Assembly: GCF_000025925.1 (NCBI RefSeq)
Contig: NC_014033.1
Span: 3,060,001-3,092,000, forward strand
Direction of reading: 5' to 3'
Source of the DNA: Xylanibacter ruminicola 23
GTDB taxonomy: Bacteria; Bacteroidota; Bacteroidia; Bacteroidales; Bacteroidaceae
Length of the DNA: 32,000 nucleotides
Below, piece after piece: positions 1-28,636 of the stretch. A model generated the notes under the pieces. That model was not told the DNA's origin, searched no databases, and worked only from the letters and a program-made list of their open reading frames with translations. Every line of letters begins with the position of its first letter. Position 1 is the stretch's first letter. The position numbers and the translations under genes were made by a program.

Positions 1-1350
1 TATAAGGACGACATGCCTTACATGATTCCAAAGGAGTGTCTGCCTCTCGAGTTGCCTGAGATTGATGAGTACAAGCCAACCGAGACTGGTGAGCCACCAT
101 TGGGACGTGCTAAGATGTGGGCTTGGGATACTAAGACCGACAAGGTGGTATCAAAGGACGAGATCGACAACAAGACCGTATTCCCACTCGAGCTGAACAC
201 CATGCCTGGTTTCGCAGGTTCATCAGCCTACTATCTGCGCTATATGGACCCCAAGAACGAGCAGGCGCTTGTTAGCAAGGATGCCGATGAGTACTGGCGT
301 AACGTAGATCTGTACGTAGGTGGTACAGAGCACGCTACAGGTCACCTGATTTACTCACGTTTCTGGAACAAGTTCCTCTTCGATTCAGGTTACAGCTGCG
401 AGGACGAGCCATTCAAGAAACTGGTTAACCAGGGTATGATTCAGGGTCGTTCTAACTTCGTATATCGTATTGAGGACGAGGGTGCCGACAAGGGTAAGTT
501 TGTAAGCTTGAACCTGAGAGGTAACTATAAGGAAACCACTCCTATCCACGTAGATGTAAATATCGTATCGGCTGATATTCTGGACATTGAGGCCTTTAAG
601 GCTTGGCGACCAGATTATAACAATGCTGAGTTCATCCTCGAAGATGGCAAATACATCTGTGGTTGGGCTATCGAAAAGATGTCGAAGTCGATGTTCAATG
701 TGGTTAATCCCGATATGATTGTAGAGAAGTATGGTGCCGACACCCTGCGTCTTTACGAAATGTTCCTGGGTCCTGTTGAGCAGAGTAAGCCTTGGGATAC
801 CAACGGTATCGATGGCTGTCACCGCTTCCTGAAGAAGTTCTGGAACCTCTTCCAGAATGGATTCGACGAGGGCGCTGCTACACCCGAGAACCTGAAGAGC
901 GTACACAAGCTTATCAAGAAAGTATCTACCGATATCGAAACATTCAGCTATAACACATCTATCTCGGCCTTCATGATTTGCGTGAACGAGCTGGGCCAGC
1001 AGAAGTGTAAGAACAAGGAGATGCTGAAGACACTTGTTATACTGATTGCTCCTTTTGCACCCCATATGGCCGAAGAGCTTTGGGAGATGCTGGGTGAGCA
1101 GGGTAGTGTATGCGACTCACAGTGGCCAAAGTGGGAAGAGAAGTATCTGGTTGAGAGCGAGGCCAAGCTTGGTGTTGCCTTTAACGGTAAGACTCGCTTT
1201 GATATGACTTTCCCTGCTGACGCCGACAATAAGACCATCGAGGAGGCTGTACTGGCCGATGAGCGCGCTCAGAAGTACCTCGAAGGTTTCCAGGTAGCAA
1301 AGGTTATCATCGTCCCTAAGCGTATGGTGAACATTGTTTTAAAGAAATAA
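1..1350 (+). CDS. leuS: Leucyl-tRNA synthetase, C-terminal part (5' end lies outside the window)
   Basis: Frame 1 is open from base 1. The translation shows class I aaRS features: the 'KMSKS' signature ([13 protein letters not shown]), '[16 protein letters not shown]' and an anticodon-binding-type C-terminus. Codon usage looks like that of a highly expressed gene. Confidence 0.95.
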
Positions 1351-2867
1351 TGACTATCGATCATAAGATTATTTGGAATGAGGTCAAGGACTATATGTTT
1401 ATAGCCCTTGGCCTTTTTCTCTATACCATCGCCTTCACAGTATTCCTGATGCCCTATCAGATTGTGGCAGGAGGTGTCACTGGTTTATCAGCTATCATTT
1501 ACTATGCTACAGGCTTTCATCTGGAAAACACCTATATCATCATCAACGGTCTGCTACTGATAGTGGCCCTGAAGATACTGGGGTATAAGTTCCTGATGAA
1601 GACTATCTTTGCCATTTTTACGCTTTACTTCATGCTGCGATTTGCGCAAGACATCATCCCAAAGCAGGATAATGGCTTGCCATTCAAGCTCATGGGTGAA
1701 GGACAGGATTTCATGTCGATGATCATCGGCTGTGTGATTACAGGTATCGCCCTGGCTACCGTATTCCTGCATAATGGCTCTACTGGTGGCACGGATATCA
1801 TCGCAGCATCAGTCAACAAGTATCACAACGTGTCTTTGGGCTCTGTACTGATAGCAGCCGACTTCTGTATCATCGGTTCGTGTATGTTCTTCCCACAGTT
1901 CGGCACCTATCTGGAGCGTGCTCATAAGGTGATGTTCGGTTTCTGTGTGATGGCCATGGAGAACTACGTACTCGACTATGTCATGAATGCCCGCAGGCAG
2001 TCGGTACAGTTCTTTATATTCTCTCGCAAATGGCAAGAGATAGCCAACGCTATCGGCACCCAGATGAATCATGGTGTGACTATTCTTGATGGTCATGGAT
2101 GGTACACTGGTAAACAGATGAAAGTGCTCTGCATCCTGGCCAAGAAGAACGAGAGTGTAAACATGTTCCGACTCATCAAGATGATAGACCCTAACGCCTT
2201 TGTATCGCAGTCGAGTGTAATCGGTGTATATGGCGAGGGATTCGATGAGATGAAAGTAAAAATCAAGAATATCGAAGAAAAGAAAAAGATGAAAATAGTA
2301 TTTGCCACCAATAATCTGAATAAACTCAGCGAGGTTAGAAAGATTCTTGGCAACAAGTTCGAAGTACTGTCGCTTGGCGAGATAGGCTGTCACGACGACA
2401 TCCCTGAAAAAGGTCAGACACTGAAGGATAATGCCCTGATAAAAGCCCAATGGGTTTACGATAAGTATCATGTTAACTGCTTTGCCGACGATACAGGCTT
2501 AGAGGTAGATGCACTTGGAGGTGCACCTGGTGTTTACAGCGCCAGATATGCCGGCGGTGTAGGACACGACTCTGAGGCTAACATGAAAAAGCTGCTCTCC
2601 GAACTCGAGAACAACGATAATCGCAAAGCCCGATTCCGCACCGTTATCGCCCTCATCATCGATGGAAAGGTAACCACCTTTGATGGTATCGTAAACGGTG
2701 TAATTACCGAAGGTAAACGAGGCGGCGAAGGTTTTGGATACGATCCTATCTTTATGCCCGAAGGTTATAACAAAACATTTGCCGAGCTGGGTACGGGTAT
2801 TAAGAATAACATCAGTCATCGCGCCAAAGCCGTGCAGAAACTGGCCGATTATCTATTAAAAAGGTAG
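1350..2867 (+). CDS. Single ORF fusing a YitT-family membrane protein (DUF2179 C-domain) to a RdgB/HAM1-type non-canonical purine NTP pyrophosphatase
   Basis: The N-terminal ~300 aa are polytopic and hydrophobic and end in 'VIGVYGEGF', which is YitT/DUF2179-like. The C-terminal ~190 aa begin '[16 protein letters not shown]' and contain 'FGYDPIF' and 'SHRAKA', which are RdgB/ITPase hallmarks. An internal in-frame ATG lies at 2289. The start overlaps the leuS stop (TAATG). Confidence 0.8.
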
Positions 2868-2870
2868 TGT

Positions 2871-4775
2871 ATGAAGAGGTTGCTTGCCATCGTATTTACA
2901 GTATGCTATTGCTACTTGGCAACAGCGCAAATAGGTACATGGCGCAACTATCTGGCCTACCATGATGTTCAGCAGATATGCAAGGCTAACAACGAGCTGT
3001 TTGTGCTGGCATCGAACAATCTTTACCAGTATAATATTGATGATGCGAGTATCACTACCTACGATAAAGTAAACGGGTTAAGTGATACCCGCATCACTCA
3101 TATAGCCTGGAACCAAAAAGCCAAGCGATTGATAGCCGTTTACGAAAACTCGAATATCGACTTGATAGAACCCGATGGCGACATTATTAATATATCGGCC
3201 CTCTATACCAAATCGATAACCGAGGATAAAACAGTTACAGCCATCTCTATCGATGATGTGTATGCTTATCTCACCACCAGCTTTGCTATCATTAAAGTAA
3301 ATATGCTGAAAGCTGAGATATCGGATACTTATACCAAAAATCATCCCGATTATCCGCACAATCTGCAACCTTATCAGGATGATTACGATAAGTATATCGC
3401 TACCGTATCAACCCTGATCCCAGAAGGACCGGCTTATAACCGCTTCTACCAGTCGAAATTCATTAATGGCCGACTCTATACCACAGGTGGTTATTTTCTG
3501 CCTGCAATGCCCGATAATGAACTTCCTGGCACCATTCAGGTGTATGATGGTAACAACTGGACGCTGTATCAGGAGCAGATTAACGAGATTACAGGTTATG
3601 CTTATGTGGATATCTGCTGTATTGATGCCGACCCTAACGACCCGGAACATGTATTTGCGGGAGGCAGATGCGGACTCTACGAATTTAAGAACGGCAAGCT
3701 TATTAACTATTATAATAAGGAGAATAGTCCGTTAATGGCTGCACTCGACAGAGGTAATCAGCTCGGAAATGATTATCTTTTAATATTAGGTATAAAGTTC
3801 GATGCTAAAGGTCATCTATGGGTGCTTAACAGCTTGGCTAAAGGGGTAAGCTTACTGGAGCTTACATCCGATTATCAATGGATAAGTCATCACCACCAAG
3901 AGCTTACCGACGAGAAAGGAATTACAGTACCAGGATTATCGAATATGATGTTTGATAGTCGTGGTTTACTTTGGTTTACTAATAACAACTGGGAGAATCC
4001 ATCGGTATTCTGTTACGATACCGATCAGGACGTGATACTTAAATACGATCAGATATTAAACCAGGACGATACAAAATATACCATCTACCATATCAACTGT
4101 ATTACAGAAGATAAAGAAGGTAATATATGGATAGGTACCGATGTGGGCCCATTTATGATTCAGAAATCAGAGATAGGACAATCTCAAGTTACCTTCTATC
4201 AGGTTAAAGTGCCACGTAACGACGGTACGAATTTTGCTGACTATTTGTTGAACGGCATAGCCATTAGCAGTATAGCTGTAGATGGTGGAAATCGTAAATG
4301 GTTTGGTACCGAAAGCGCTGGCGTTTTTCTTATTTCGTCAGATAATTTGATACAGGAGCATAACTTTAATATAGATAATTCAAAGCTGCTGTATAACAAT
4401 ATCTCATCTATCGCTATAAACCATCAATCAGGCGAAGTATTCTTCCTGTCGGATAATGGCTTATGTTCTTATCAGAGTAATGCTGTAGAACCTAACGAGC
4501 AGATGACTAAAGATAACGTGATAGCTTATCCTAATCCAGTTACACCCGATTTTACTGGCATGGTTACCATTACTGGATTAAGTTATGACGCTGATGTGAA
4601 GATTACAACAGCTACAGGTGCCATTGTAGCCGAAGGACGTAGTAATGGCGGTATGTTTAACTGGGATTGCTGTAATAAGCAAGGAAAACGCGTAGCAAGC
4701 GGTGTTTATATGGTGATAACAGCTACATCGGATGGTAAGAAAGGTACCGTTTGTAAAATTGCCGTTATCAATTAA
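2871..4775 (+). CDS. Secreted beta-propeller protein with a T9SS C-terminal sorting domain, PorZ-like
   Basis: There is an N-terminal signal peptide (MKRLLAIVFTVCYCYLATAQ). Repeated 'two-component regulator propeller'-like blades are present (GNIWIGTDVG, GLLWFTNNN, GHLWVLNS, NRKWFGTESAG). The last ~80 aa (AYPNPV...GVYMVITA...KIAVIN) look like a type-A Por/T9SS CTD. Confidence 0.65.
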   Translation: MKRLLAIVFTVCYCYLATAQIGTWRNYLAYHDVQQICKANNELFVLASNNLYQYNIDDASITTYDKVNGLSDTRITHIAWNQKAKRLIAVYENSNIDLIEPDGDIINISALYTKSITEDKTVTAISIDDVYAYLTTSFAIIKVNMLKAEISDTYTKNHPDYPHNLQPYQDDYDKYIATVSTLIPEGPAYNRFYQSKFINGRLYTTGGYFLPAMPDNELPGTIQVYDGNNWTLYQEQINEITGYAYVDICCIDADPNDPEHVFAGGRCGLYEFKNGKLINYYNKENSPLMAALDRGNQLGNDYLLILGIKFDAKGHLWVLNSLAKGVSLLELTSDYQWISHHHQELTDEKGITVPGLSNMMFDSRGLLWFTNNNWENPSVFCYDTDQDVILKYDQILNQDDTKYTIYHINCITEDKEGNIWIGTDVGPFMIQKSEIGQSQVTFYQVKVPRNDGTNFADYLLNGIAISSIAVDGGNRKWFGTESAGVFLISSDNLIQEHNFNIDNSKLLYNNISSIAINHQSGEVFFLSDNGLCSYQSNAVEPNEQMTKDNVIAYPNPVTPDFTGMVTITGLSYDADVKITTATGAIVAEGRSNGGMFNWDCCNKQGKRVASGVYMVITATSDGKKGTVCKIAVIN

Positions 4776-4782
4776 ATAAAAA

Positions 4783-4809
4783 GCTGGAGTTAATTAACTC
4801 AACTCCAGC
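4783..4809. terminator. Hairpin between convergent genes, likely the nadA terminator and possibly bidirectional
   Basis: GCTGGAGTT (4783-4791) is the exact reverse complement of AACTCCAGC (4801-4809), with a 9-nt loop. On the minus strand it is followed by a TTTTT run (complement of 4778-4782). The right arm overlaps the last nadA codons. Confidence 0.45.
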
Positions 4810-5741
4810 ATTCTATTAATTGGCTTAACAGCTTCTTTAGCTATCTCAGGATCAACCTCAATCTGAGGGCTCATAGTCTTTAAACAGTTATAAACCTTCT
4901 CGAGTGTATTTAATTTCATGTAATTACACTCATTACAACTGCATTCTAAGCCACTCTCGCTTATTTCTGGAGGTACAGGGATAAATTCCTTATCAGGACA
5001 AGTACGTTGCATCTCGTGCAGAATACCAGCCTCTGTAGCCACAATAAACTGCTTTTTATCGCTCTGCTGGGCATAATTCAGCATCGTAGCTGTACTTCCC
5101 TTAACTTCAGCCACAGCCAATACTGGTGCCTTGCACTCCAAGTGTGCCATCACTACTGCATCGGGATACTGCTTTTTAAGCTCCAGAATCTTTGAAACCG
5201 AGAAACGCTCGTGCACATGACAACCACCATTCCAAAGCAACATCTTTCTACCTGTCACCTCATTGATATAGTTACCAAGATTATAGTCAGGACCAAATAT
5301 CAGCTTAGCATCCTTTGGCAACTGATCAACCACCTTCTTTGCATTTCCACTGGTCACCACCACATCAGTCAGCGCCTTAACAGCTGCTGTGGTATTTACA
5401 TAACTGATAACCTGATAACCAGGATGCTCATCCTTAAACTTCTTCAGGTCTTCGGCCTTACAACTGTCGGCCAGCGAACAGCCAGCTGCCAGATCAGGAC
5501 AAAGCACAATCTTATCAGGCGATAGCAGCTTACAGGTTTCGGCCATAAAGTGCACACCACACATTACCATTACTTTGGCATCAGTCTCGGCAGCCTTACG
5601 CGCCAAAGCCAACGAGTCACCTACAAAATCGGCGATATCCTGAATATCACCAATCGTATAATAGTGAGCCAGGATGATGGCATCTTTTTCCTCACACATC
5701 TTACGAATCTCAGCTTTCAGCTCCTTTGTTGTCAACACCAT
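4794..5741 (-). CDS. nadA: Quinolinate synthase
   Basis: 315 aa. It contains 'VMCGVHFMAETCKLL', 'VNTTAAVKA' and conserved Cys-containing segments typical of NadA. Confidence 0.93.
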   Translation of the reverse strand: MVLTTKELKAEIRKMCEEKDAIILAHYYTIGDIQDIADFVGDSLALARKAAETDAKVMVMCGVHFMAETCKLLSPDKIVLCPDLAAGCSLADSCKAEDLKKFKDEHPGYQVISYVNTTAAVKALTDVVVTSGNAKKVVDQLPKDAKLIFGPDYNLGNYINEVTGRKMLLWNGGCHVHERFSVSKILELKKQYPDAVVMAHLECKAPVLAVAEVKGSTATMLNYAQQSDKKQFIVATEAGILHEMQRTCPDKEFIPVPPEISESGLECSCNECNYMKLNTLEKVYNCLKTMSPQIEVDPEIAKEAVKPINRMLELS

Positions 5742-5800
5742 ATTATTTTTATATTTCTTTTTTTATTTATTTTTTAAAAATAGAATAAGTAGTATGATAT
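5742..5800. other. Almost pure A/T tract, a candidate DNA-unwinding element or promoter region
   Basis: The sequence attatttttatatttctttttttatttattttttaaaaatagaataagtagtatgatat contains very few G/C. It lies immediately upstream of nadA on the divergent side. Confidence 0.4.
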
Positions 5801-5922
5801 GCCGTGAATATCTTGATAACTTTTTAGCGTTTTTATTGTATAATTGACTATTAACTACAAAAAATCACTTATTAACCATTACTGTTAATTCTTTCTGTCT
5901 GATAATGAACCACTAAGCATAC

Positions 5923-6108
5923 TTATCCACAATTTCCAATTTCGGTGCAAAATTAATAAGTTTATTATTTATTTTGGCATAAAAGTGTGGAAAACTTGCG
6001 AAAATATACGTAATAAACCTGTGGATATCCCCAAATGTAAGAGTGTAGGGTATAATTAACAAGTTATTAACATAGTTATCCACACACTTATCAACAGGTT
6101 TTTCCACA
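5923..6108. promoter_or_regulatory. Cluster of six DnaA-box-like 9-mers
   Basis: There are two perfect TTATCCACA boxes at 5923-5931 (+) and 6076-6084 (+). Four 1-mismatch variants are present: TTTTCCACA at 5986-5994 (-) and 6100-6108 (+), ATATCCACA at 6020-6028 (-), and TTATCAACA at 6088-6096 (+). The last three boxes are head-to-tail with starts exactly 12 bp apart. Confidence 0.6.
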
Positions 6109-6152
6109 ATTATTTGGTAGTTTGTTTTCTATGTAGTAACTTTGCAGGCAGA

Positions 6153-6683
6153 ATGAAGAAGTTACGTACAATAGAAATGGATCGTCTGACTGTCGACGAG
6201 TTTAAGCAGGCAGACAAGTTGCCACTCATTGTGGTGTTAGATGATGTGCGATCAATGCATAATGTGGGTAGTGTTTTCCGTACGGGTGATGCTTTCCGTA
6301 TCGAGGCAGTTTATCTTTGTGGTATTACCAGTACACCACCTATGGCCGAGATTCATAAAACAGCTCTTGGTGCCGAGGATAGTGTAACATGGAAATACTT
6401 CGATACGGCACTTGAGGCAGTTGAGACATTAAAGGCTGAAGGCTATGAAGTTTATTCTGTTGAACAAGCTCATGGTTCAACCATGCTTCAGAACTTTACA
6501 CCTATTAATAATAAGAAGTATGCTGTGGTGTTAGGCAACGAGGTAAAAGGTGTTCATCAGGAAGTCATCGATGCTTCGGATGGTTGTTTAGAGATACCTC
6601 AGTTTGGCACCAAACACTCCATGAATGTATCAGTAACAGGTGGCATCATCATCTGGCATTTTGCAAAAAATATCATTCTTTAG
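6153..6683 (+). CDS. TrmH/SpoU-family RNA 2'-O-methyltransferase
   Basis: SPOUT motifs are present: 'NVGSVFRTGDAF', 'VVLGNEVKGV' and 'LEIPQFGTKHSMNVSVTGGI'. I prefer the ATG at 6153 (MKKLRTIEMDRL) over the TTG at 6114 given by the ORF track, which yields 176 aa. Confidence 0.85.
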   Translation: MKKLRTIEMDRLTVDEFKQADKLPLIVVLDDVRSMHNVGSVFRTGDAFRIEAVYLCGITSTPPMAEIHKTALGAEDSVTWKYFDTALEAVETLKAEGYEVYSVEQAHGSTMLQNFTPINNKKYAVVLGNEVKGVHQEVIDASDGCLEIPQFGTKHSMNVSVTGGIIIWHFAKNIIL

Positions 6684-10967: not shown

Positions 10968-12410
10968 ATGGAATCTTTGAAGGAAAAAACAGCTAAGGGC
11001 CTGTTTTGGGGTGGAATGAACAATGGCGTTCAGCAATTGCTCGGCCTCATCTTTGGTATCATTCTGGGTCGTTTGCTTAATCCTTCCGACTATGGTCTTA
11101 TAGCCATGATTACCATCTTTTCGCTGATAGCAACCGCTTTGCAGAATAGTGGTTTCTCTACAGCGCTGGTTAACGAAAAAGAGCCAAAAGACAGTGACTA
11201 TAATGCTGTCTTTTGGTTCAATATTTTTATGGGTGGCGTTATCTACTTAACGCTTTTCTTCTCAGCACCATTAATAGCTGATTACTATGATGAGCCCCGA
11301 TTGGTTGCATTATGTCGTTATGCCTTTATCGGGCTGTTATTCAGTTGTAGTGGTGTAGCGCAGGCGGCTTATCTTTATAAGAATCTCAGAGCCCAGCAAC
11401 TGGCTAAGGCTAGCATTACGGCTACTATCCTATCCAGTAGTGTGGCTGCTGTGATGGCTTGGCAAGGTTTTTCTTATTGGAGCTTGGCCACTCAAACTAA
11501 CCTCTTTATTTTGATATCTACCCTGCTGCGCTGGCATTATAGCGATTGGCGCCCTACGCTGAAGGTTGATTTTACGTTTATCCGTAAGGCATTTCCGTTC
11601 AGCGTAAAGATCCTGATTAGCGATGTGCTGACACAGGTCAATAACAACGTGATGAATATGTTGCTGGGTCGTTACTTTAGCGCACATGATACTGGTAACT
11701 ATAACCAGGCCTATCAGTGGAACAACAAGTGTACATCGCTTATCCAAGGTATGGTAAAGCAGGTAGATCAGACGGTGCTGGTAAGCGTAAGGGATGATCG
11801 CGAGCGCCAACTGGCTGTACTGCGTAAGATGGTGCGTTTTGCTGCATTTATCTCGTTCCCTTTGTTGTTGGGATTCGGCTTAGTAGCAAAAGAGTTTATT
11901 GTGCTGGCCATAGGCGAGAAGTGGCTTATATCAGCACAATATCTGCAGTGGATATGTGTGTGTGGTGCTGTGCTACCCATCAGCACATTAATGGCCGATT
12001 TCCTGATAAGTAGAGGTAAATCAGGTACGTTTATGGGCTGTACGTTAGCGTTGGGTTTGCTTCAGATTGTAGCCATGCTAACGCTTTACCCCTATGGTAT
12101 TGCCACGATGGTTAAGACTTACGTAGTACTTAATTTGTTTTGGCTGTTTGTGTGGTTTTTCTTTGCCTGTAAGGATACCAGCTATACCTTATTGCTGATG
12201 CTGAAGGATATCATGCCTTTTGCTTTGGCTGCTGCAGGTGTGATGTTTGCTACAGGTTATATCACCTCGAATATTGGAAACCTGGTGCTGCTGCTCATCA
12301 GTAGATGTATATTGGCAGCTGTACTCTATTATGCTGTGATGCGCCTGGCTGGTGCGCAGATACTGAAGGAGACTACAGATTTTATGATGAACAAAATTAA
12401 AAAACAATAA
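10968..12410 (+). CDS. Polysaccharide/oligosaccharide flippase of the MOP (Wzx-like) family
   Basis: 480 aa with about 12-14 hydrophobic segments. The N-terminus 'KTAKGLFWGGMNNGVQQLLGLIFGIILGRLLNPSDYGLIAM' is typical of polysaccharide-biosynthesis (Wzx) proteins. Confidence 0.85.
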   Translation: MESLKEKTAKGLFWGGMNNGVQQLLGLIFGIILGRLLNPSDYGLIAMITIFSLIATALQNSGFSTALVNEKEPKDSDYNAVFWFNIFMGGVIYLTLFFSAPLIADYYDEPRLVALCRYAFIGLLFSCSGVAQAAYLYKNLRAQQLAKASITATILSSSVAAVMAWQGFSYWSLATQTNLFILISTLLRWHYSDWRPTLKVDFTFIRKAFPFSVKILISDVLTQVNNNVMNMLLGRYFSAHDTGNYNQAYQWNNKCTSLIQGMVKQVDQTVLVSVRDDRERQLAVLRKMVRFAAFISFPLLLGFGLVAKEFIVLAIGEKWLISAQYLQWICVCGAVLPISTLMADFLISRGKSGTFMGCTLALGLLQIVAMLTLYPYGIATMVKTYVVLNLFWLFVWFFFACKDTSYTLLLMLKDIMPFALAAAGVMFATGYITSNIGNLVLLLISRCILAAVLYYAVMRLAGAQILKETTDFMMNKIKKQ

Positions 12411-12413
12411 GAT

Positions 12414-13136
12414 ATGAACTATGCTTTGATTATTGCCGGCGGCTCTGGAAACAGAATGGGACAGGATATTCCCAAGCAGTTTATCAACGTTTACGATAAG
12501 CCTGTACTCATCTATACATTGGAGAGTTTTCAGCGTCATCCTATGGTAGATGCTATCGAAGTAGTTTGTCTTGATGGCTGGCATGAGGTGCTTTGGGCCT
12601 ATGCTCGCCAGTTTAATATTACCAAACTTCAGGCTGTTGTAGCTGGTGGAAACAGTGCTCAGGAGAGCATTCGTAATGGTGTGTACGACTTAGAAAGCAA
12701 GGCTTCTGACGATGATATCATCATTATCCACGATGGTATCCGTCCCCTGGTGGATGATACCGTACTTACTGATGTTATCCAGAAAGCTATGCAGTATGGT
12801 AATGGAGTAACATCGTTGCCTTATAATGAACAGATATTCATTGTAAATCCTGACGATGAAACAACCACTAAGCAGTATATTCCTCGCGAAACCTTGCGAC
12901 GTGTATCTACACCTCAGGCCTATCAGTTCAAGAAGCTTGATGCTGCCTATCACGAGGCTTTCGAAAAAGGCATAGGTATTCATGGCTCGTCTTACACCAA
13001 TACCATGATGGTAGAATTGGGTGAGACGCTGCATTTTGCAGCAGGTTCGGATAAGAACATCAAACTTACCACTAAGGATGATCTGGAGATGTTCAAGGGT
13101 TATATGAAAATGGATAAGGACACATGGCTGAAGTAA
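12414..13136 (+). CDS. IspD/TarI-family cytidylyltransferase, predicted ribitol-5-phosphate cytidylyltransferase
   Basis: The N-terminal 'ALIIAGGSGNRMGQDIPKQF' is the nucleotide-binding signature. 'VAGGNSAQESIRNG' is also present. The genomic context is an SDR plus a LicD-family gene. Confidence 0.8.
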   Translation: MNYALIIAGGSGNRMGQDIPKQFINVYDKPVLIYTLESFQRHPMVDAIEVVCLDGWHEVLWAYARQFNITKLQAVVAGGNSAQESIRNGVYDLESKASDDDIIIIHDGIRPLVDDTVLTDVIQKAMQYGNGVTSLPYNEQIFIVNPDDETTTKQYIPRETLRRVSTPQAYQFKKLDAAYHEAFEKGIGIHGSSYTNTMMVELGETLHFAAGSDKNIKLTTKDDLEMFKGYMKMDKDTWLK

Positions 13137-14176
13137 TATCACTCTATAAGCAGCATCCTCTTTATCAGGAGGATTTGGATCGTATCACTCAGTTGGGTGA
13201 TATCAACCGTCTTTATGGCAAATCGTTTATGATATCTGGTGCTACAGGTTTGATTGGCGTTTGCTTGATAGATGCTTTGATGCATCTGAATAAGAAAGGC
13301 GCTAACATCACTATTTATGCCTTGGGGCGTAATCGCGAAAAAGCAGCCTTGCGACTTGGTGAGTATTTTGAGGACAGCAACTTCCATTTTGTGGAGCGCG
13401 AAGCCTCAGAGTCGCTTTTAGAGTTGCCTAAGGTTGATGTAATTATTCCTTTGGCATCTAACACCCATCCATTAGCTTATTCAAAGTATCCCATCGAGAC
13501 TATCAATATTAATGTGAAAGGTGCTGAACAGGCGCTCGAGAAAGCTTTGGCTTGTAATGCGATGGTGCTCTATCCATCAACAGTCGAGGTGTATGGTAAT
13601 GCCCGTGGTGATGATGATTTTACTGAGGATTACACTGGAAAGCTGAACTTAGCTACTTCGCGTGCCTGCTATACAGAGTCAAAGCGACTGAGTGAAGCCC
13701 TCTGTCAGTCGTATATTGCTGAACGTGGTGCTCAGGTTAAGATTGTAAGACTGAGCCGTGTGTTTGGTCCTACCATGCTGATGAGCGATAGTAAAGCCTC
13801 ATCGCAGTTTATCCAGAAGGCTTTGGCTGGCGAGAATATCGTACTGAAGAGTAAGGGCGAACAGCTCTTCTCTTACACCTATGTGGCTGATGCTGTAGGA
13901 GCTATGTTGCACGTGTTGCTGCATGGCGAAGAGGGTGTAGCTTATAATATAGCCAACGAGGCCTGCAATGTGCGCTTAAAGGACTTTGCTCAGCTGTGTG
14001 CCGAGTGGGCCGATAAGCAGGTTGTATTCGAGTTACCTTCAGAAACAGAACAGAAGGGCTTTTCGATTGCTATGCGTGCCGTACTTGATAACAGCCGCCT
14101 TAAGGGATTGAATTGGCATCCTCAGTATGCGATGAAGGATGCAGTGTGTCGTACATTATCAATATTAAAGTCATGA
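13124..14176 (+). CDS. Extended SDR (NAD-dependent epimerase/dehydratase family), candidate reductase partner of the cytidylyltransferase
   Basis: It has a Rossmann 'ISGATGLIG' motif and a catalytic 'YTESK' (YxxxK). It overlaps the upstream gene by 13 nt. Confidence 0.8.
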   Translation: MAEVISLYKQHPLYQEDLDRITQLGDINRLYGKSFMISGATGLIGVCLIDALMHLNKKGANITIYALGRNREKAALRLGEYFEDSNFHFVEREASESLLELPKVDVIIPLASNTHPLAYSKYPIETININVKGAEQALEKALACNAMVLYPSTVEVYGNARGDDDFTEDYTGKLNLATSRACYTESKRLSEALCQSYIAERGAQVKIVRLSRVFGPTMLMSDSKASSQFIQKALAGENIVLKSKGEQLFSYTYVADAVGAMLHVLLHGEEGVAYNIANEACNVRLKDFAQLCAEWADKQVVFELPSETEQKGFSIAMRAVLDNSRLKGLNWHPQYAMKDAVCRTLSILKS

Positions 14177-14979
14177 ATAATCCATATCTGCAGAAGTTCA
14201 AGGAACAGCAACTGCGTGCCTGCCAGCTGAAACAGTTGTCTATTCTCGAAGAGATCGACCGTATCTGTAAGAAGCACCAGATTGGCTATTGGCTTGATGG
14301 TGGTACACTATTAGGTGCAGTTCGCCATGGGGGCTTTATTCCTTGGGATGACGATATCGATATTGCCATGCGTCAGGAGGATCTGGACCGTTTTGTAAGT
14401 GTGGCACCATCCGAACTTCGCGAAGGTTTATTCCTGCAGACACCACAGATTGAACCGCAATCAAAAGAGCCTATCGTAAAGGTGCGCGATCTGAATTCTT
14501 TCTATGTTGAAGGTTCAGATAACTTTGCGGCCGACTATCAGAAAGGTCTTTATGTTGATATATTCCCAATGGTAGATTATCCTACGCTGTCCAAAAAGTG
14601 GGTAAAGCGTATTACATTGGGTATTTCAAAGAGTTATTCTATCCTGCACAAGTCGCATTACTATTCATTTAATGCGTTTGCTGAGTTCTTCTGGTTTGGT
14701 GCCAAATATGCCGTTAATAAGTGCCTTTGGAGTTTGCTTTGCGCCGTTCGTCCTAAGAACGTGTACCTGTCGAATATCCTGATTAATAATGGTTATGGCA
14801 TTATGCATCGCCAGGATTCTGTTTTCCCATTGGGTACTATTAACTTCGAGGGGAAATCATTTAGTGCGCCTTGCAATCCTGATGCTTATCTGAGCGATCT
14901 CTATCGTAACTACATGGAGATTCCGCCTAAAGAGAAGCAAAAGATTCATTCTGTATTCATTATGCCCGAACTGATATGA
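14173..14979 (+). CDS. LicD-family phosphotransferase (LicD/fukutin-type nucleotidyltransferase fold)
   Basis: 'WLDGGTLLGAVRHGGFIPWDDDIDIAM' is the LicD signature. I prefer the ATG at 14173 (MNNPYLQ), which forms an ATGA overlap with the SDR stop, over the ORF-track start at 14113. Confidence 0.8.
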   Translation: MNNPYLQKFKEQQLRACQLKQLSILEEIDRICKKHQIGYWLDGGTLLGAVRHGGFIPWDDDIDIAMRQEDLDRFVSVAPSELREGLFLQTPQIEPQSKEPIVKVRDLNSFYVEGSDNFAADYQKGLYVDIFPMVDYPTLSKKWVKRITLGISKSYSILHKSHYYSFNAFAEFFWFGAKYAVNKCLWSLLCAVRPKNVYLSNILINNGYGIMHRQDSVFPLGTINFEGKSFSAPCNPDAYLSDLYRNYMEIPPKEKQKIHSVFIMPELI

Positions 14980-16001
14980 AACAACCCGCAAAGACTGATA
15001 TTGCTGTTCTGCTGCTGTTCTTTAATCGTGCAGATACTTTCCGCCAGGTTTTCGAGGCGGTTAAGGAGGCTCGCCCCTCAAAGCTGTTTCTCTACCAGGA
15101 TGGTCCTCGTGGCGAACGTGATATGGCTGGCATAGAGGCTTGTCGTGCGATTGTGAGCGATGAGAACATCGACTGGGAGTGCGAGGTGCATCGTATGTAT
15201 CAGGAAAAAAACTATGGCTGCGATCCTTCTGAGTATATCTCGCAGAAATGGGCTTTCTCTATCGTTGATAAGTGCATGGTGCTTGAGGACGATGATGTGC
15301 CCTCACAGTCGTTCTTTCCTTTCTGTAAGGAGATGCTTGATAAGTACGAGAACGACGAGCGTATCAGTATGATTTCGGGCTTTAATATCGATGAGGTTAC
15401 AGAGGATTGTCCTTACGATTACTTCTTTACCTCAACATTTGGCATCTGGGGCTGGGCGTCGTGGCGACGCGTTATCGATCAGTGGGACGGTCAGTATTCA
15501 TTCCTCGACGATGCGTATAATATGGCACAGCTAAAGGCTTTGGCCGAGCAGCGCAAATACAGAAAGGATATGATTAAGATGTTCGCCAATCATCGTGCTA
15601 CTGGCAAGGAGTACTACGAGAGTATTTTCTGGGCATCCATGCTGTTTAATTCTGGTCTGGCCATTCTTCCTTCAAAGAACCAGATAAATAATCTGGGTTT
15701 AATGGCCGATTCTACGCATTTTACCGCTTCGGCCAAGACCACACCCAAGCGCTTCCTTAAAATCTTTACCATGAAGCGTTATGAGTTGGAATTTCCACTT
15801 AAACACCCTAGATATGTGATTGAGAATGTAGGTTATAAGGACAGACTATACAAGATTCTTGCATGGCGTCATCCTTTAACCAAGATCAGCTATTCGTTAG
15901 AGGAGTTGTGGCTTAATATCCGATATGGCCAGTTTGGTAATATATCGAAAGCTTTTTCGCGACGTATCCGTAAGTGGTTAGGCACAGAAAAGCATGCCTG
16001 A
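14976..16001 (+). CDS. GT-A-fold glycosyltransferase (GnT-I / 'HlpA-like' nucleotide-diphospho-sugar transferase family), putative
   Basis: 'DIAVLLLFFNRADTFRQVFEAV...LFLYQDGPRGERD' together with an acidic 'LEDDD' motif resembles this family. It forms an ATGA overlap with the LicD gene. Confidence 0.6.
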   Translation: MKQPAKTDIAVLLLFFNRADTFRQVFEAVKEARPSKLFLYQDGPRGERDMAGIEACRAIVSDENIDWECEVHRMYQEKNYGCDPSEYISQKWAFSIVDKCMVLEDDDVPSQSFFPFCKEMLDKYENDERISMISGFNIDEVTEDCPYDYFFTSTFGIWGWASWRRVIDQWDGQYSFLDDAYNMAQLKALAEQRKYRKDMIKMFANHRATGKEYYESIFWASMLFNSGLAILPSKNQINNLGLMADSTHFTASAKTTPKRFLKIFTMKRYELEFPLKHPRYVIENVGYKDRLYKILAWRHPLTKISYSLEELWLNIRYGQFGNISKAFSRRIRKWLGTEKHA

Positions 16002-16020
16002 TATTGAGGCATGCTTTTTT
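15988..16020. terminator. Bidirectional-looking terminator between convergent operons
   Basis: The stem pairs AGCATGCCT (15991-15999) with AGGCATGCT (16007-16015) and is extendable by A:T pairs. The loop is 7 nt and is followed by TTTTTT (16015-20). It sits between the stops at 16001 (+) and 16023 (-). Confidence 0.7.
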
Positions 16021-16022
16021 CG

Positions 16023-17426
16023 TTATATGATAGCTTTGATAGGCGATAGCAGGAAATCGGTCAGCAGATAGCCGTTATATATTAATAGGTATATAGTCAT
16101 AGCTGCCACTACCCATCTTAGCCAGCTTGTTTGTACGGCTTTAAATAGATAGGCTGTAGCAATGGGCAGTACAAATGCCCAGTGTGGCGTCATGATATAT
16201 ATCTCGTTAAGGCCGAAACCTAAGCCGATGTGTATCAGCATGTCGAAGGCAAATCCAGACAGGCAGAGCCAAAGGAAACGGCTTTTACGTCCCATCCACA
16301 CGCCTATCACAAAGAACAGCAGTATAAGTGCTTCGATGATATAACTGAATACCCAGTTGTAACGTACAAATACTGGACGATGAACCAGCACATCCTCTAG
16401 GAAGTAGTCCTGATGGAACTGCAGCGACTCGCCAAACAGGTTCTCATAGGTAGATTGCCAGCGCGATGTAGAGATGTCTGTCCACTTCAGGAAACCGTAA
16501 TTCTCCATAGGCTTACCAGTCTTGGCTGCCTGGCGCTGTAATACCTTATCGCGACGGGCTTTCTTGGCCTCGTACTGCTCTTTCTGTTCAGCAGTCATCT
16601 GGGCCACACGTGCCTTTTGCTGTTCTGCTTTCTTTGCTTTCTGTTCTGCGCGTGCCTTTTCTTTGGGCAGCACATACGTGCGATACTCCCATTGTGCCGT
16701 TCCCCACAGCAAGGCAGCTGGCAGGATAACAGCCAACAACAGGTATTTTGGACGGAAGAAATCGCGCAGATTTACAAAGAATCCTGATAAGAAAACCTTC
16801 ACACCATTGCTCAGCGTAACACCTGCTGTGATATAGAACAGAATGGCCGACTGCCACCACTTGAACTCACGGCGCTTTTTGATGCATACACCTGAGATAT
16901 AGAGCGTGATGAGCAGTAGGAACATGGATATTGTAAAATGGTCGGGCACGATGGCTGCCATCAGAATATATGCCATCGAGAAGAAGTAGGTCGTGAGCAG
17001 CGTTGCATCCTTTTGTCCTAACTCTATCACCTCGCGATGAATGCGATACAGGAAGATGTATGAGTAGAAAGTACAGAATATCAGCAATCCTGCTACCAGA
17101 TACTGCACGCAGTTAACGCCTAACAGCCAAGTAAGCCCCTCGTTAATAACCCACAGCGGCCATATCATAAACGACAGCAACGGGTGGCGATACACCTGAT
17201 ACACCACATCCCAGTTGGTTACGCCCAGATAGGTAAGCGGGTCGTAGCCCGACAGATGCAGCTCGTGTTCGAAAGCCTTCCAATAGGGGCCGAAACCTGG
17301 TTGCATAAACAACTCGTGCATACGGAAGATAAACATAGCGTTGAGGGCTATGATAACCATAAGAGCAATCGTCGACTGCCAGCGTTCTTCGGGTTTAATC
17401 TTGAATATCTTAAGTGGATTTCTCAT
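16023..17426 (-). CDS. Polytopic membrane protein of unknown function with a K/A/E/Q-rich charged insert
   Basis: 467 aa with many hydrophobic segments. A soluble insert is present: 'PKEKARAEQKAKKAEQQKARVAQMTAEQKEQYEAKKARRDKVLQRQAAKTGKP'. It forms an ATGA overlap with the HAD gene. I can assign no family motif with confidence, and a GT-C-like role is only a guess. Confidence 0.7.
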   Translation of the reverse strand: MRNPLKIFKIKPEERWQSTIALMVIIALNAMFIFRMHELFMQPGFGPYWKAFEHELHLSGYDPLTYLGVTNWDVVYQVYRHPLLSFMIWPLWVINEGLTWLLGVNCVQYLVAGLLIFCTFYSYIFLYRIHREVIELGQKDATLLTTYFFSMAYILMAAIVPDHFTISMFLLLITLYISGVCIKKRREFKWWQSAILFYITAGVTLSNGVKVFLSGFFVNLRDFFRPKYLLLAVILPAALLWGTAQWEYRTYVLPKEKARAEQKAKKAEQQKARVAQMTAEQKEQYEAKKARRDKVLQRQAAKTGKPMENYGFLKWTDISTSRWQSTYENLFGESLQFHQDYFLEDVLVHRPVFVRYNWVFSYIIEALILLFFVIGVWMGRKSRFLWLCLSGFAFDMLIHIGLGFGLNEIYIMTPHWAFVLPIATAYLFKAVQTSWLRWVVAAMTIYLLIYNGYLLTDFLLSPIKAII

Positions 17427-18007
17427 TGTCTGAATGGTTTAAAATATGATTCGTCGGCAAATGCCAGCATTTCTTTGTCGCCACGACTATCGCCAAAGGC
17501 AGTCAGGTGATAATCCTTTCTGTCGGGAAAGAGGGTCAGGATACGGCTCACCTTTTCCTGGCCATAGCAGTTCTTGGTAAGAAAGCGTCCTGTCAGCTCG
17601 CCATCAATCACTTCAATCTGTGTGCCCAGCACTTTTACATCAGTAAAGAAAGGCTGCACCCAGTTATCGATAGATGCGCTTACTATCAGCACCTCCGCCC
17701 CCTCGTTCTGGGCTTGCTGTATGGCCTTGATGCCTGCAGGGCGTAGCAGATACTGCGATGAGGCTGCAAAGGCTTGGCAGAGGGCGTTAAAATCCTCGAT
17801 AGTCATACCCTTAAAGAAGTATGCAAACACCTTTTGTTTGGCTTTCCAGTTAGGATAGAGCCCCAGTTTCATCAGCACCAGCAGATGGGCATAGCGTGCA
17901 AAGCCCCATCCAAAGGCCAATGTGCCCTTGGCAAAACGGATAAACTCTATCAACGTATCCTTAGTTGTCAGCGTTCCGTCGAAATCGAAGGCGTATATCT
18001 TCTTCAT
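17423..18007 (-). CDS. HAD-IB family hydrolase/phosphatase
   Basis: Motif I is 'YAFDFDGTLT'. The C-terminal 'FGDSRGDKEMLAFAD' is motif IV. A cap-domain insert is typical of subfamily IB. Confidence 0.85.
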   Translation of the reverse strand: MKKIYAFDFDGTLTTKDTLIEFIRFAKGTLAFGWGFARYAHLLVLMKLGLYPNWKAKQKVFAYFFKGMTIEDFNALCQAFAASSQYLLRPAGIKAIQQAQNEGAEVLIVSASIDNWVQPFFTDVKVLGTQIEVIDGELTGRFLTKNCYGQEKVSRILTLFPDRKDYHLTAFGDSRGDKEMLAFADESYFKPFRQ

Positions 18008-19032
18008 ACTCTAACGATGAGTTTCAGTATCTTTTGTAGTGCCCATGCCAAAGGGATGGTAATCACGATGGTGAGTAAGGCCGTAAGCCAGTATCCCAGA
18101 TGGTAGGGGATGAGGTAGGTCATCACAAAGTGATCGTGTATCAGATAGGCCTCCAGACTGAGGGCACCAAAGAAAGCGCAGAAGCTGTTGAACCATCGCG
18201 GCGTGCGACGGAACACACGGTTCAGCATCATAATCAGCGTGATGGTAAACGGTATGTATATCATACGCTCTACAAACAAGGGGAATCGTCCGTGCGAAAT
18301 CTGCTCCAGATACACACACGAACTGAAGGTAGCCACAAAGATAGCCACTATCATCCAGATGCCTGCACCATCAATCTTGGTTTGTTTTCGCACCAGTTCG
18401 CCGCAGTTAATGCCGATAAAGAAGATGGGCACGCGGCTCCAGAATATCTCGATATGCCCTACGGCCTGATGCAATGGGGCTATCCATTGCACCCAGATGC
18501 ACCATAGAATCATAACTACAGGCATCCATCGGTAAACGGGATGGCGCTGAATCAATCGCATGTAAGGCGGGGCCCAGAGGTAGAGCATCATAATGGCTGG
18601 GATATACCAGAAGGTGAGCTCGTCGTGCAACCAGAAGTCCCAGTTAATGGCGATGTCGCCAATCAGGTCGATATAATCGCCGTTTGTCCAGTCGAATCGT
18701 GGCAGATAGAAGAGCGATGCCATTACCAGCCAGGCAGGATAAATACGCAGCAGGCGGCGCTTGTAGAACTGCCACAAAGCTGGATTCTTTACCCACGAGA
18801 ACCAAAGGCCGATACCACTCAGGAACAGGAACATATCTACCCCCACATTACCACATCGCCTTAATCCGAAGAACTCGTTACTACGAGCCAGCGGCACGTG
18901 GAACAGGATGATGAACAGCATAGCTGCTCCCATCAATTCAGCGCGATAACGGCTAATGTTGGCCAGTTCTATATCCTTTATCTTCACAGTTTGGGACTTG
19001 GCAGTTGGTCTATCAGCTTCTTGAATAACCAC
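18004..19032 (-). CDS. Acyltransferase family 3 (membrane O-acyltransferase)
   Basis: It is polytopic, and 'RAELMGAAMLFIILFHV' is the N-terminal acyltransferase-3 signature. An alternative GTG start at 18987 would give a 4-nt GTGA overlap with the upstream stop instead of a 49-nt overlap. Confidence 0.8.
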   Translation of the reverse strand: MVIQEADRPTAKSQTVKIKDIELANISRYRAELMGAAMLFIILFHVPLARSNEFFGLRRCGNVGVDMFLFLSGIGLWFSWVKNPALWQFYKRRLLRIYPAWLVMASLFYLPRFDWTNGDYIDLIGDIAINWDFWLHDELTFWYIPAIMMLYLWAPPYMRLIQRHPVYRWMPVVMILWCIWVQWIAPLHQAVGHIEIFWSRVPIFFIGINCGELVRKQTKIDGAGIWMIVAIFVATFSSCVYLEQISHGRFPLFVERMIYIPFTITLIMMLNRVFRRTPRWFNSFCAFFGALSLEAYLIHDHFVMTYLIPYHLGYWLTALLTIVITIPLAWALQKILKLIVRV

Positions 19033-20072
19033 GAGAGGAACAGCGTTGCTACCACGTAGAGCAGCAACCCTGCATACATATCATCATAAATGTAAGGTCG
19101 CACAATGATTTTTCGAACCAGCGGATGGGCCACAAAGATAGCTGACGAGATACCACCCACCCAGACGCTGTACGACAGCATCCATTCGGGCATTACTTTT
19201 ACAAGTGCAATGGTGCCAACAACGATAAATGCAGGAACCCATAGCCAGCCTTGGAAGTTTGAACTCAAAGCTACGATGAGGGCAACAGCGAGTAATAAGG
19301 CTATAATATATTCCCAGTTAGGGAATATTTTGTTCCCAACGTGGGAATGTTTTGTTCCCAACGTGGGAATAATTGTTGGTATTCTAGCTGCCAACAAGCC
19401 TAAGCCGAAAGGCAGCACGCCGCCAATCAAGTTATAACGTAATCGCTCCAGCAAAACAGCATCGTCCTGGCAGGAAAGTTGCCACAACCAGCACAGAACT
19501 ATCATACCTGCAACTACACCCCAGTGGCGCCAGCGATAAAGTACCAGGCGATAGAAAATGTAAAGCTGCAAGGTAATGCTGAAGTACCAGTAAGGACCAG
19601 GCCAAACCACATGCGAGGGATCCTCGAACAGGTTGGCAAACATGCCCAGCATACCAACCACCGCTGTCCAGGTATAGCGATGCATGCCTGGGGTGATGGC
19701 ATCGAGCAAGATAAAGGCCACAAAGCCTACGATAAAAATGCGGAACAACTTAAGATAGTTGTAGCGTACAAATCGCCACAAACCTACCTCGGGTAACTTG
19801 CCCTGTTCGTATTTCTTAACCAGTCCGTAACCACTCAGAAAGAGGAATACGGGCACGCCATAGTGGCCGAAGAACGACACCAGATGCATGGGTAACTGTT
19901 CATCTGGATTAAGAGTGAGGCGCCACAGCTCATCGAACTTGAATTGTTGCCAGGTATATTCGTTCTCTCTCACGATGCCCCTGAGCCAGTGGCAATAGTT
20001 GTGCAGCATGATGGCCAGGATGGCAACACCACGCATGGCAGAACACTCTTTTCTTGATAACAGTTCTTTCAT
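18984..20072 (-). CDS. Acyltransferase family 3 (membrane O-acyltransferase), second paralogous-type gene
   Basis: 'MRGVAILAIMLHNYCHW' and the C-terminal 'GGISSAIFVAHPLV' fit the family, and the protein is polytopic. It forms an ATGA overlap with the upstream gene. Confidence 0.8.
   Translation of the reverse strand: MKELLSRKECSAMRGVAILAIMLHNYCHWLRGIVRENEYTWQQFKFDELWRLTLNPDEQLPMHLVSFFGHYGVPVFLFLSGYGLVKKYEQGKLPEVGLWRFVRYNYLKLFRIFIVGFVAFILLDAITPGMHRYTWTAVVGMLGMFANLFEDPSHVVWPGPYWYFSITLQLYIFYRLVLYRWRHWGVVAGMIVLCWLWQLSCQDDAVLLERLRYNLIGGVLPFGLGLLAARIPTIIPTLGTKHSHVGNKIFPNWEYIIALLLAVALIVALSSNFQGWLWVPAFIVVGTIALVKVMPEWMLSYSVWVGGISSAIFVAHPLVRKIIVRPYIYDDMYAGLLLYVVATLFLSWLFKKLIDQLPSPKL
19308..19370. repeat. 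Three phased palindromes (TTCCC-N-GGGAA cores) including a 21/22-bp perfect tandem duplication, inside the acyltransferase ORF
   Basis: The units are ATATTCCC-agtta-GGGAATAT (19308-19328), TTCCCA-acg-TGGGAA (19333-19347) and TTCCCA-acg-TGGGAA (19355-19369). Their centres at 19318, 19340 and 19362 are exactly 22 bp apart. The 21-mer TTTTGTTCCCAACGTGGGAAT occurs at both 19328-19348 and 19350-19370. Confidence 0.8.
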
Positions 20073-21907: not shown

Positions 21908-22448
21908 AGAGTTCGTGTTCCTTTATATATTCAGCCACAGCCTTTGGCACCAGATGATTGATAGGCTTGCCTGCCTGGATGCACTCGCGTATTTCGGTGC
22001 TCGAAATGTCGATGAGGTCGAGTCCGTCGATACCACCTTCGCAACCACGACGGGGATAAACGATAATCTGGTACTGATTGCGGATATCATCGGCACGATA
22101 CCACTTGTCAAACAGCTGCCAGTTGTCGCCACCTATCATCAGTACAAACTCGCGGTCGGGATAATCTCGCTTCAGGGCCTCGAGTGTGTTCCAGGTGTAC
22201 GATGGTTTGGGCAGATGCATCTCGTAGTCGCTGGCTATGATGCCAGTTTCGCCTTCAACAGCCAGGCGGGCCATCTCCATGCGTATCTGGTCGTCCAGCA
22301 AATCGGCTTGGGCTTTCAGGGGGTTCTGTGGCGAAACCATCAGCCACACTTCGTCGAGCCCAGCTTTTTCACAAAGCTGACGAGCCAACGAAATGTGACC
22401 GTTATGAATGGGATTGAACGATCCGCCAAAAATCCCCGTTCTTATCAT
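21900..22448 (-). CDS. nadD: Nicotinate-nucleotide adenylyltransferase
   Basis: 'GIFGGSFNPIHNGHI' is the (H/T)xGH nucleotidyltransferase motif. The protein is 182 aa, and 'ISSTEIR' is present near the C-terminus. Confidence 0.92.
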   Translation of the reverse strand: MIRTGIFGGSFNPIHNGHISLARQLCEKAGLDEVWLMVSPQNPLKAQADLLDDQIRMEMARLAVEGETGIIASDYEMHLPKPSYTWNTLEALKRDYPDREFVLMIGGDNWQLFDKWYRADDIRNQYQIIVYPRRGCEGGIDGLDLIDISSTEIRECIQAGKPINHLVPKAVAEYIKEHELYA

Positions 22449-26499: not shown

Positions 26500-26521
26500 T
26501 CATTATAAATTAACAAAAGGT

Positions 26522-28621: not shown

Positions 28622-28636
28622 ACCAATAATAGTTTC

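Follow-up and report, generated by a model that had tools for sequence, protein, structure and literature searches.

The intergenic DNA between nadA and trmH, at positions 5742-6108, is very probably the chromosomal oriC of Prevotella (Xylanibacter) ruminicola, a prediction from sequence that places the origin far from dnaA. The initial annotation of this DNA had proposed a candidate oriC here, and the proposal is supported by the sequence elements of the region, among them a basal unwinding system (BUS) module, by their conservation in related species, by a switch in strand composition (skew) at the site, and by identity with the DoriC-predicted oriC and the BUS predicted there. Positions throughout are those of a 32-kb stretch of strain 23 (NC_014033:3,060,001-3,092,000), here called the window, which was placed by the published BUS coordinate.

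An origin between nadA and trmH is already known as a DoriC prediction, and its unwinding module has already been called (PMC8287927). DoriC entry ORI93030288 is the predicted oriC of P. ruminicola 23, NC_014033 (Table S1 of Pelliciari et al. 2021, PMC8287927). It concerns the same locus, and the database entry is an automatic prediction; the present analysis adds how the cluster is conserved over the family, how the skew behaves around it, a promoter motif inside it, and the variability of its right border.

The nadA-trmH locus and its neighbors

The predicted origin and the two genes that bound it are as follows:

4794..5741, - strand: nadA, quinolinate synthase (Pfam PF02445, E 7e-120)
5742-6108: predicted oriC of P. 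ruminicola, between nadA and trmH
6153..6683, + strand: SpoU/TrmH RNA methyltransferase (Pfam PF00588), an incidental right-hand neighbor

Both NadA and TrmH match proteins of Xylanibacter (Prevotella) ruminicola with full identity, ADE81198.1 among them.

Neither dnaA nor dnaN was found among the 29 ORFs scanned against Pfam (the larger, non-overlapped ORFs of the 32-kb window), which for dnaA agrees with the initial annotation. Adjacency to dnaA/dnaN, typical of many phyla and non-defining for oriC, is therefore not a feature of the nadA locus. The missing dnaA/dnaN are no argument against an oriC because this is usual for Bacteroidetes (PMC4755523). The initial annotation had stated that the origin is not linked to dnaA in several Bacteroidota, and a dnaA-distant origin is described as common in Bacteroidetes (PMC4755523).

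One annotated gene overlaps the region. In GCA_019973335.1, a 64-amino-acid ORF at 5913-6107 on the - strand spans the DnaA-box cluster; it has no Pfam match and shows interspecies indels, and we rejected it as a gene, the annotation probably being spurious.

Farther to the right, the window holds a surface-glycan block (10968-16001 and 16023-22448) that encodes a Wzx-like flippase, an IspD-like cytidylyltransferase, an epimerase, LicD, and DUF6080, as well as a HAD hydrolase, two acyltransferases, a sulfatase-family protein, and a cytidylyltransferase. This block (10968-22448) varies by strain, in the orientation of LicD and in the glycosyltransferases present in loci L002 and L004. Beyond it, at 25474-30639, hemE (uroporphyrinogen decarboxylase), a TonB-dependent receptor, an MFS transporter, and a HemD-like protein are grouped, and may form a tetrapyrrole uptake or salvage cluster.

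A cluster of DnaA boxes

The boxes of the region, from the nadA side outward, are as follows:

5803-5811, - strand: weak DnaA box ATATTCACG, 3 mismatches, in tandem with the next and overlapping it by 1 nt
5811-5819, - strand: weak DnaA box TTATCAAGA, 2 mismatches
5869..5877, + strand: degenerate box TTATTAACC, 3 mismatches
5923-5931, + strand: perfect DnaA box TTATCCACA, the best conserved box of the predicted origin
5986..5994, - strand: DnaA box TTTTCCACA, 1 mismatch, present in most species as (T/C)GTGGAAAA
6020..6028, - strand: DnaA box ATATCCACA, 1 mismatch, kept about 280 nt from nadA in relatives
6076..6108, + strand: three DnaA boxes, TTATCCACA (6076-6084, perfect), TTATCAACA (6088, one mismatch), and TTTTCCACA (6100, one mismatch), head-to-tail with a 12-bp period, forming the outer edge of the origin

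The initial annotation had listed six DnaA-box-like 9-mers within 186 bp, and all six were recovered at the coordinates and on the strands it gave; the head-to-tail arrangement at 6076, 6088, and 6100 with its 12-bp period can be read directly from the sequence. It had also called two exact copies of one 9-mer in about 400 bp very unlikely by chance, and the 32-kb window has no perfect box besides those at 5923 and 6076. Missing from its list were the tandem boxes at 5811-5819 and 5803-5811, both on the - strand, with two and three mismatches.

Matches with at most one mismatch number 20 in the window, versus 8.7 expected, and 0 of 100 shuffles reached 20. Six such boxes per 186 bp compare with an expectation of 0.05 (Poisson P of about 2e-11), or a P of about 4e-9 after correction for 172 windows. 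The nadA-trmH intergenic region thus contains a DnaA-box cluster above chance, which is one of the features we looked for in an oriC.

An A/T tract and a predicted unwinding module beside it

Between the tandem weak boxes and nadA lie the following elements:

5742..5774: A/T-only tract, the proposed DNA unwinding element (DUE), which is also the final part of the putative nadA leader
5775..5798, + strand: eight DnaA-trios, 3'-NAN-5', with the central A at 5776, 5779 ... 5797
5799-5802: 4-nt gap between the trios and the tandem weak boxes, reading GCAT on the - strand

The tract of about 60 bp at 5742-5800, described in the initial annotation as almost purely A/T, has an A+T content of 91.5%, rising to 97.6% over 5742-5782, and the segment 5758-5782 is the sole A/T-only run of at least 20 nt in the 32-kb window. 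Among the 30-bp duplexes of the window, that at 5740-5769 is the least stable (-26.3 kcal/mol versus a mean of -39.4), so that by sequence an A/T-rich candidate unwinding element adjoins the boxes. The tract is A/T-rich across all aligned species and lies directly distal to the DnaA-trios. Its suggested role as an unwinding element gains from both the duplex stability and the box-spacer-trio module beside it, and 5742-5800 may well be where the origin would open.

Read on the - strand from 5819 toward nadA, the order is TTATCAAGA, ATATTCACG, GCAT, the eight trio complements (ATC ATA CTA CTT ATT CTA TTT TTA), and the A/T-only tract. The published definition of a BUS asks for 3 or more trios of the form 3'-NAN-5' on the correct strand, separated by no more than 16 bp (mode 10-13) from a DnaA box that has up to 2 mismatches; a second box, which is optional, may have up to 4 (PMC8287927). 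At 5775-5819 we found 8 trios, a spacer of 12 bp between them and the upstream box, and two boxes that depart from the consensus at 2 and 3 positions. Table S1 gives the same values for the BUS of NC_014033 (mismatches 2 and 3, spacer 12, 8 trios), listed as AATAGTTCT ATAAGTGC CGTA TAGTATGATGAATAAGATAAAAAT from 3,065,819 to 3,065,774 (PMC8287927). When reversed, this published 45-nt string has a single occurrence in the window, at 5775-5819 on the + strand.

The boxes that feed the trios are weak in P. ruminicola, with 2 and 3 mismatches, and this counts against the oriC reading. In many relatives the two module boxes are near-perfect (at most 1 mismatch, about 64 and about 72 nt from the nadA ATG), and the module box is present in 63 of 74 aligned sequences. 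Trio-like periodicity arises more readily by chance in A/T-rich DNA, and a shuffle control speaks against chance here: the mean trio run in the relatives was 5.1 versus 2.4 in shuffles, and runs of at least 5 trios occurred in 60% of species versus 4.9% of shuffles. The module is thus kept in relatives and is longer there than chance would give.

Conservation across the Prevotellaceae

A NadA alignment scan with one genome per species yielded 80 Prevotellaceae loci with NadA identities of 73-97%, including those of Segatella copri and Hoylesella pleuritidis; P. intermedia was absent from the set. Conservation of the box array in related genomes, a check suggested by the initial annotation, was clear. 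In 73 of the 80 species, 3-11 boxes with at most 1 mismatch lie within 650 bp upstream of nadA, and in nearly all of these 73 no other 300 bp of the 20-kb locus are as dense in boxes. Five related nadA loci were without a box cluster.

The box positions are fixed as well, so the region is kept as non-coding DNA in related genomes, which is another mark of an oriC. Counted from the nadA start codon, boxes are kept at offsets of about 64(-), 72(-), 126(+), 182(+, usually perfect), 280(-), 318(-), and 336/348/360(+). Nearly every species has an equivalent of box 5923, mostly a perfect one, at about 180-186 nt from the nadA ATG. At the position of the degenerate TTATTAACC, about 126-130 nt from nadA, box maps and consensus reveal a box with at most 1 mismatch in many relatives, and the family consensus of the 12-bp array is AGTTATCCACA, three times, at about 336/348/360 nt from nadA.

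The gene on the far side, opposite nadA, differs between species, with trmH there in a minority only. In two metagenomic contigs of the window's own species, whose NadA is identical (L003 and L007), homology with the window ends right after the last DnaA box. Since the far-side gene is variable and homology stops after the last box, the cluster travels with nadA and not with trmH. From these sequence comparisons, the outer border of the origin, after 6108, appears as a strain-level rearrangement or insertion point. What replaces the trmH side in those contigs (L003:1-9630 and L007:1-9630) is a TPR protein, a TonB-dependent receptor, and a RiPP-like set of YcaO, nitroreductase, and ABC transporter genes.

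Such a border, and the A/T-richness of the intergenic DNA, might suggest an integrated plasmid or mobile-element origin, or chance box-like words. However, the region sits among housekeeping genes with the same architecture family-wide, a plasmid collection searched with the nadA-trmH intergenic DNA gave zero matches, and the chance probability is about 1e-9. Because of the family-wide conservation, a mobile or chance origin of the cluster is effectively refuted and retains next to no probability.

A separate observation concerns an uncultured Prevotella sp., hRUG878 (OMUH01000049.1). Its locus contains a mostly ORF-free stretch of about 2.5 kb (L087:16700-19300) with about 20 same-strand DnaA-box-like 9-mers (GTTATCAACA, GTTTTCAACA, and GTTATAAACA), 7-9 kb from a nadA-linked cluster that is without a perfect box. 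This field could be a second DnaA-binding (titration) field, or a relocated or second origin.

Strand composition switches at the cluster

Skew was tested locally, over about 10 kb per side, with G and C at third codon positions (GC3), which were used because they separate replication bias from coding bias. Within the window, which by itself shows the pattern that the pooled loci give, + strand genes left of the cluster have GC3 skews of +0.04, -0.16, and -0.10, and nadA, on the - strand, has +0.45; right of the cluster, + strand genes mostly have +0.1 to +0.3 and - strand genes are near zero. For the comparison of species, 73 loci were oriented with nadA as + and the cluster to its left. The coding-sense GC3 skew of these loci was +0.096 for + strand and -0.158 for - strand genes on the right, and -0.100 for + strand and +0.032 for - strand genes on the left. 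These values by side and strand indicate that the G-rich strand changes at the cluster regardless of gene orientation.

The pooled plus-strand GC3 skew in 1-kb bins was negative in 9 of 10 bins on the left and positive in 10 of 10 on the right, with the jump exactly at the cluster (-0.132 to +0.126). The right side exceeded the left in 57 of 63 loci, a count drawn from related species and hence from non-independent samples. The switch persisted for all three classes of far-side neighbor and with nadA excluded, and no GC3 switch was seen at the 5 related nadA loci without a cluster. Its polarity is that of an origin (a cumulative-skew minimum), not of a terminus. A strand-bias switch, as expected of an oriC, is therefore found locally, with its sign stable over 10 kb on each side, and the DoriC prediction bears indirectly on the chromosome as a whole. 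The cumulative GC3 minimum of the individual loci is noisy, falling within 1.5 kb of the cluster in 18 of 46; single 20-kb loci are too short, so only the pooled profile is convincing.

Gene orientation on the nadA side goes against the oriC reading. There, leuS (3' part), a YitT-DUF2179-Ham1 fusion, and porZ (type IX secretion), at 13-4775 on the + strand, all face the proposed origin and would run head-on to a leftward fork. The GC3 skew of these genes is zero to negative, which is lagging-strand-like.

The initial annotation had also offered a DnaA-titration site as an alternative, that is, a titration or reactivation locus (datA-like or DARS-like) near, but not at, the origin. A dense cluster of strong and weak boxes outside the dnaA region would suit such a locus, and with a second box field 7-9 kb off in L087, extra DnaA-binding loci may exist in the family. 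The skew switch, however, maps to the cluster at 1-kb resolution, and in most species the 10 kb to each side contain no stronger cluster. Moreover, the unwinding module and the least stable duplex are both present, and titration sites need neither. With these observations at hand, titration is disfavored and we consider it highly improbable.

An invariant block with an internal promoter motif

Within the origin, and just outside it, three further elements were noted:

5941..5975, - strand: near-invariant 35-bp block GGTGCAAAnnTAATAAGTTTATATCTTTTTT, about 90-100% column conservation in 74 sequences
5947-5955, - strand: Bacteroidota -7 motif TAATTTTGC (TAnnTTTGC), pointing toward nadA
6137..6144, + strand: TAACTTTG, a -7 motif for trmH, belonging to the neighbor gene and outside the conserved origin

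The block at 5941-5975 is the best conserved part of the region, above the DnaA boxes themselves. The Bacteroidota -7 promoter consensus is TANNTTTGY (PMC12632263), and the only conserved -7 motif of the intergenic region is that at 5947-5955, found in 56 of the 74 sequences. An extended -7 pattern is present in 64 of 74 with 8 different NN dinucleotides and fixed flanks, so TANNTTTGY is kept and its NN is variable, as would be expected of a Bacteroidota promoter. As to the -33 TTTG of the Bacteroidota housekeeping promoter, GCAAAA (- strand TTTTGC) stands about 22 nt upstream of the -7 motif in many species, but the window has GCATAAAA there. The motif is flanked by box 5986, just upstream, and by box 5923, about 15-25 nt downstream. 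Upstream of the -7 motif, 20 nt (reading TAATAAGTTTATATCTTTT on the + strand) also hardly vary among the 74 sequences, which is more conservation than is normal for a promoter spacer.

We infer promoter activity for this motif. A transcript from about 5935-5942 on the - strand would probably reach nadA by way of box 5923, the two weak boxes, the trios, and the A/T tract, giving a leader of about 195 nt. An Rfam scan of 5500-6400 returned nothing above threshold, its sole match being to a snoRNA (E 0.13), so the putative leader of nadA shows neither a riboswitch nor another known RNA. If the internal promoter is real, origin opening and nadA expression may influence each other, and part of the conservation at the -7 motif could serve nadA transcription instead of replication. 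That the block at 5941-5975 is a Prevotellaceae-specific origin-control element beyond the nadA promoter, or the site of an origin-specific protein, is an unlikely though conceivable extension.

The A/T-rich DNA at 5948-5976 was also considered as a second BUS running rightward from box 5923. It was rejected, since the first run of at least 3 trios is 30 nt away, with a limit of 16, and the -7 promoter motif accounts better for this block. A role of 5948-5976, the fourth least stable site in the window, as a secondary easily melted site is possible.

The internal motif bears directly on another alternative from the initial annotation, in which this is merely a DnaA-regulated promoter region for nadA and/or trmH and the boxes serve transcriptional control. 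The near-invariant -7 motif at 5947-5955 is aimed at nadA with boxes 5923 and 5986 on either side of it, no other conserved -7 motif lies nearer nadA, and the -7 motif of trmH abuts the last box. Yet the flank at 6137-6144 is not conserved between strains or species, trmH is not the neighbor in most species, and nadA stands without any boxes in 5 related species. A promoter alone also leaves unexplained the origin-polarity GC3 switch exactly at the cluster in dozens of species, the 10 or more boxes over 370 bp, the box-spacer-trio-A/T module, and the DoriC oriC at this site. A promoter without an origin is thus very unlikely. DnaA control of a nadA promoter most likely holds in addition to the origin, not in its place, and so this part of the proposal probably stands as an added layer on the strength of the motif at 5947-5955; the part concerning trmH falls away, trmH being an incidental neighbor.

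Comparison with known origins

The predicted unwinding module is like that of Bacillus subtilis (boxes 6/7), in which tandem boxes overlap by one base, a gap of 4 nt follows, 8-9 trios with A at their center begin 12 bp from the upstream box, and A/T-rich DNA comes after them (Table S1 rows, PMC8287927). The Table S1 rows for P. melaninogenica, P. denticola, and P. intermedia 17 hold unrelated low-scoring strings and are neutral on homology (PMC8287927). Unlike the oriC of B. subtilis, which flanks dnaA/dnaN, that of P. ruminicola lies between nadA and a variable neighbor, far from dnaA. As far as a sequence comparison goes, the feeding boxes of P. ruminicola are weaker and its proximal trios are TAG/TAT instead of GAT.

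The oriC of Escherichia coli is compact (about 250-370 bp), has strong boxes at its edges with weaker ones between, a DUE at one end, and no linkage to dnaA, and it has the flanking or internal promoters gidA and mioC. The P. ruminicola origin resembles it in compactness, box layout, the lack of dnaA linkage, a proposed DUE at one end, and putative promoters. However, the E. coli oriC sequence is not homologous, and GATC/SeqA and IHF/Fis sites were not identified in the P. ruminicola origin. Low-affinity box arrays in E. coli have an 11-bp period, whereas the arrayed boxes of P. ruminicola have a 12-bp period.

Closer to the present organism, an origin was assigned in P. intermedia OMA14 by Ori-Finder from a DnaA-box cluster and a GC-skew transition, about 480 bp long, at 1,498,452-1,498,927, and far from dnaA (PMC4755523), and by this description it can be likened to that of P. 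ruminicola. A literature search found no experimentally characterized oriC for Prevotella, Bacteroidales, or any Bacteroidota.

A proposed order of events at the origin

By analogy with B. subtilis, we infer how DnaA would bind, in what order, and where the duplex would open. DnaA would first occupy the strong boxes at 5923 and 6076. As ATP-DnaA builds up, the weaker sites at 5986, 6020, 6088, and 6100 and the tandem pair at 5803-5819 would be filled, and a DnaA oligomer would presumably grow from the tandem pair toward nadA over the + strand trios at 5775-5798. The A/T-only tract at 5742-5774 would then open, allowing helicase loading and bidirectional replication. The internal promoter, with its -7 motif at 5947-5955 on the - strand, would probably drive transcription into nadA that passes over box 5923, the trios, and the A/T tract.

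Implications

Metagenomic estimates of growth rate for Prevotella of the rumen and gut, which use peak-to-trough ratios, take the origin as their reference point, and knowing where it lies also serves replichore-aware genome analysis and the design of replicating vectors for bacteria that are difficult to manipulate. These data leave the accepted view of how replication initiates in bacteria unchanged, and what the invariant block with its internal promoter motif and the variable outer border add to the known prediction is modest. The comparative data add that a nadA-linked origin is common to the Prevotellaceae, including Segatella copri, that its predicted unwinding module is like that of B. 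subtilis, and that its outer border appears to be a rearrangement point. In the less likely case that the invariant block is also an origin-control element, transcription from inside oriC through a DnaA box, the trios, and the unwinding element would couple the initiation of replication to the expression of nadA, a gene of NAD biosynthesis, or vice versa.
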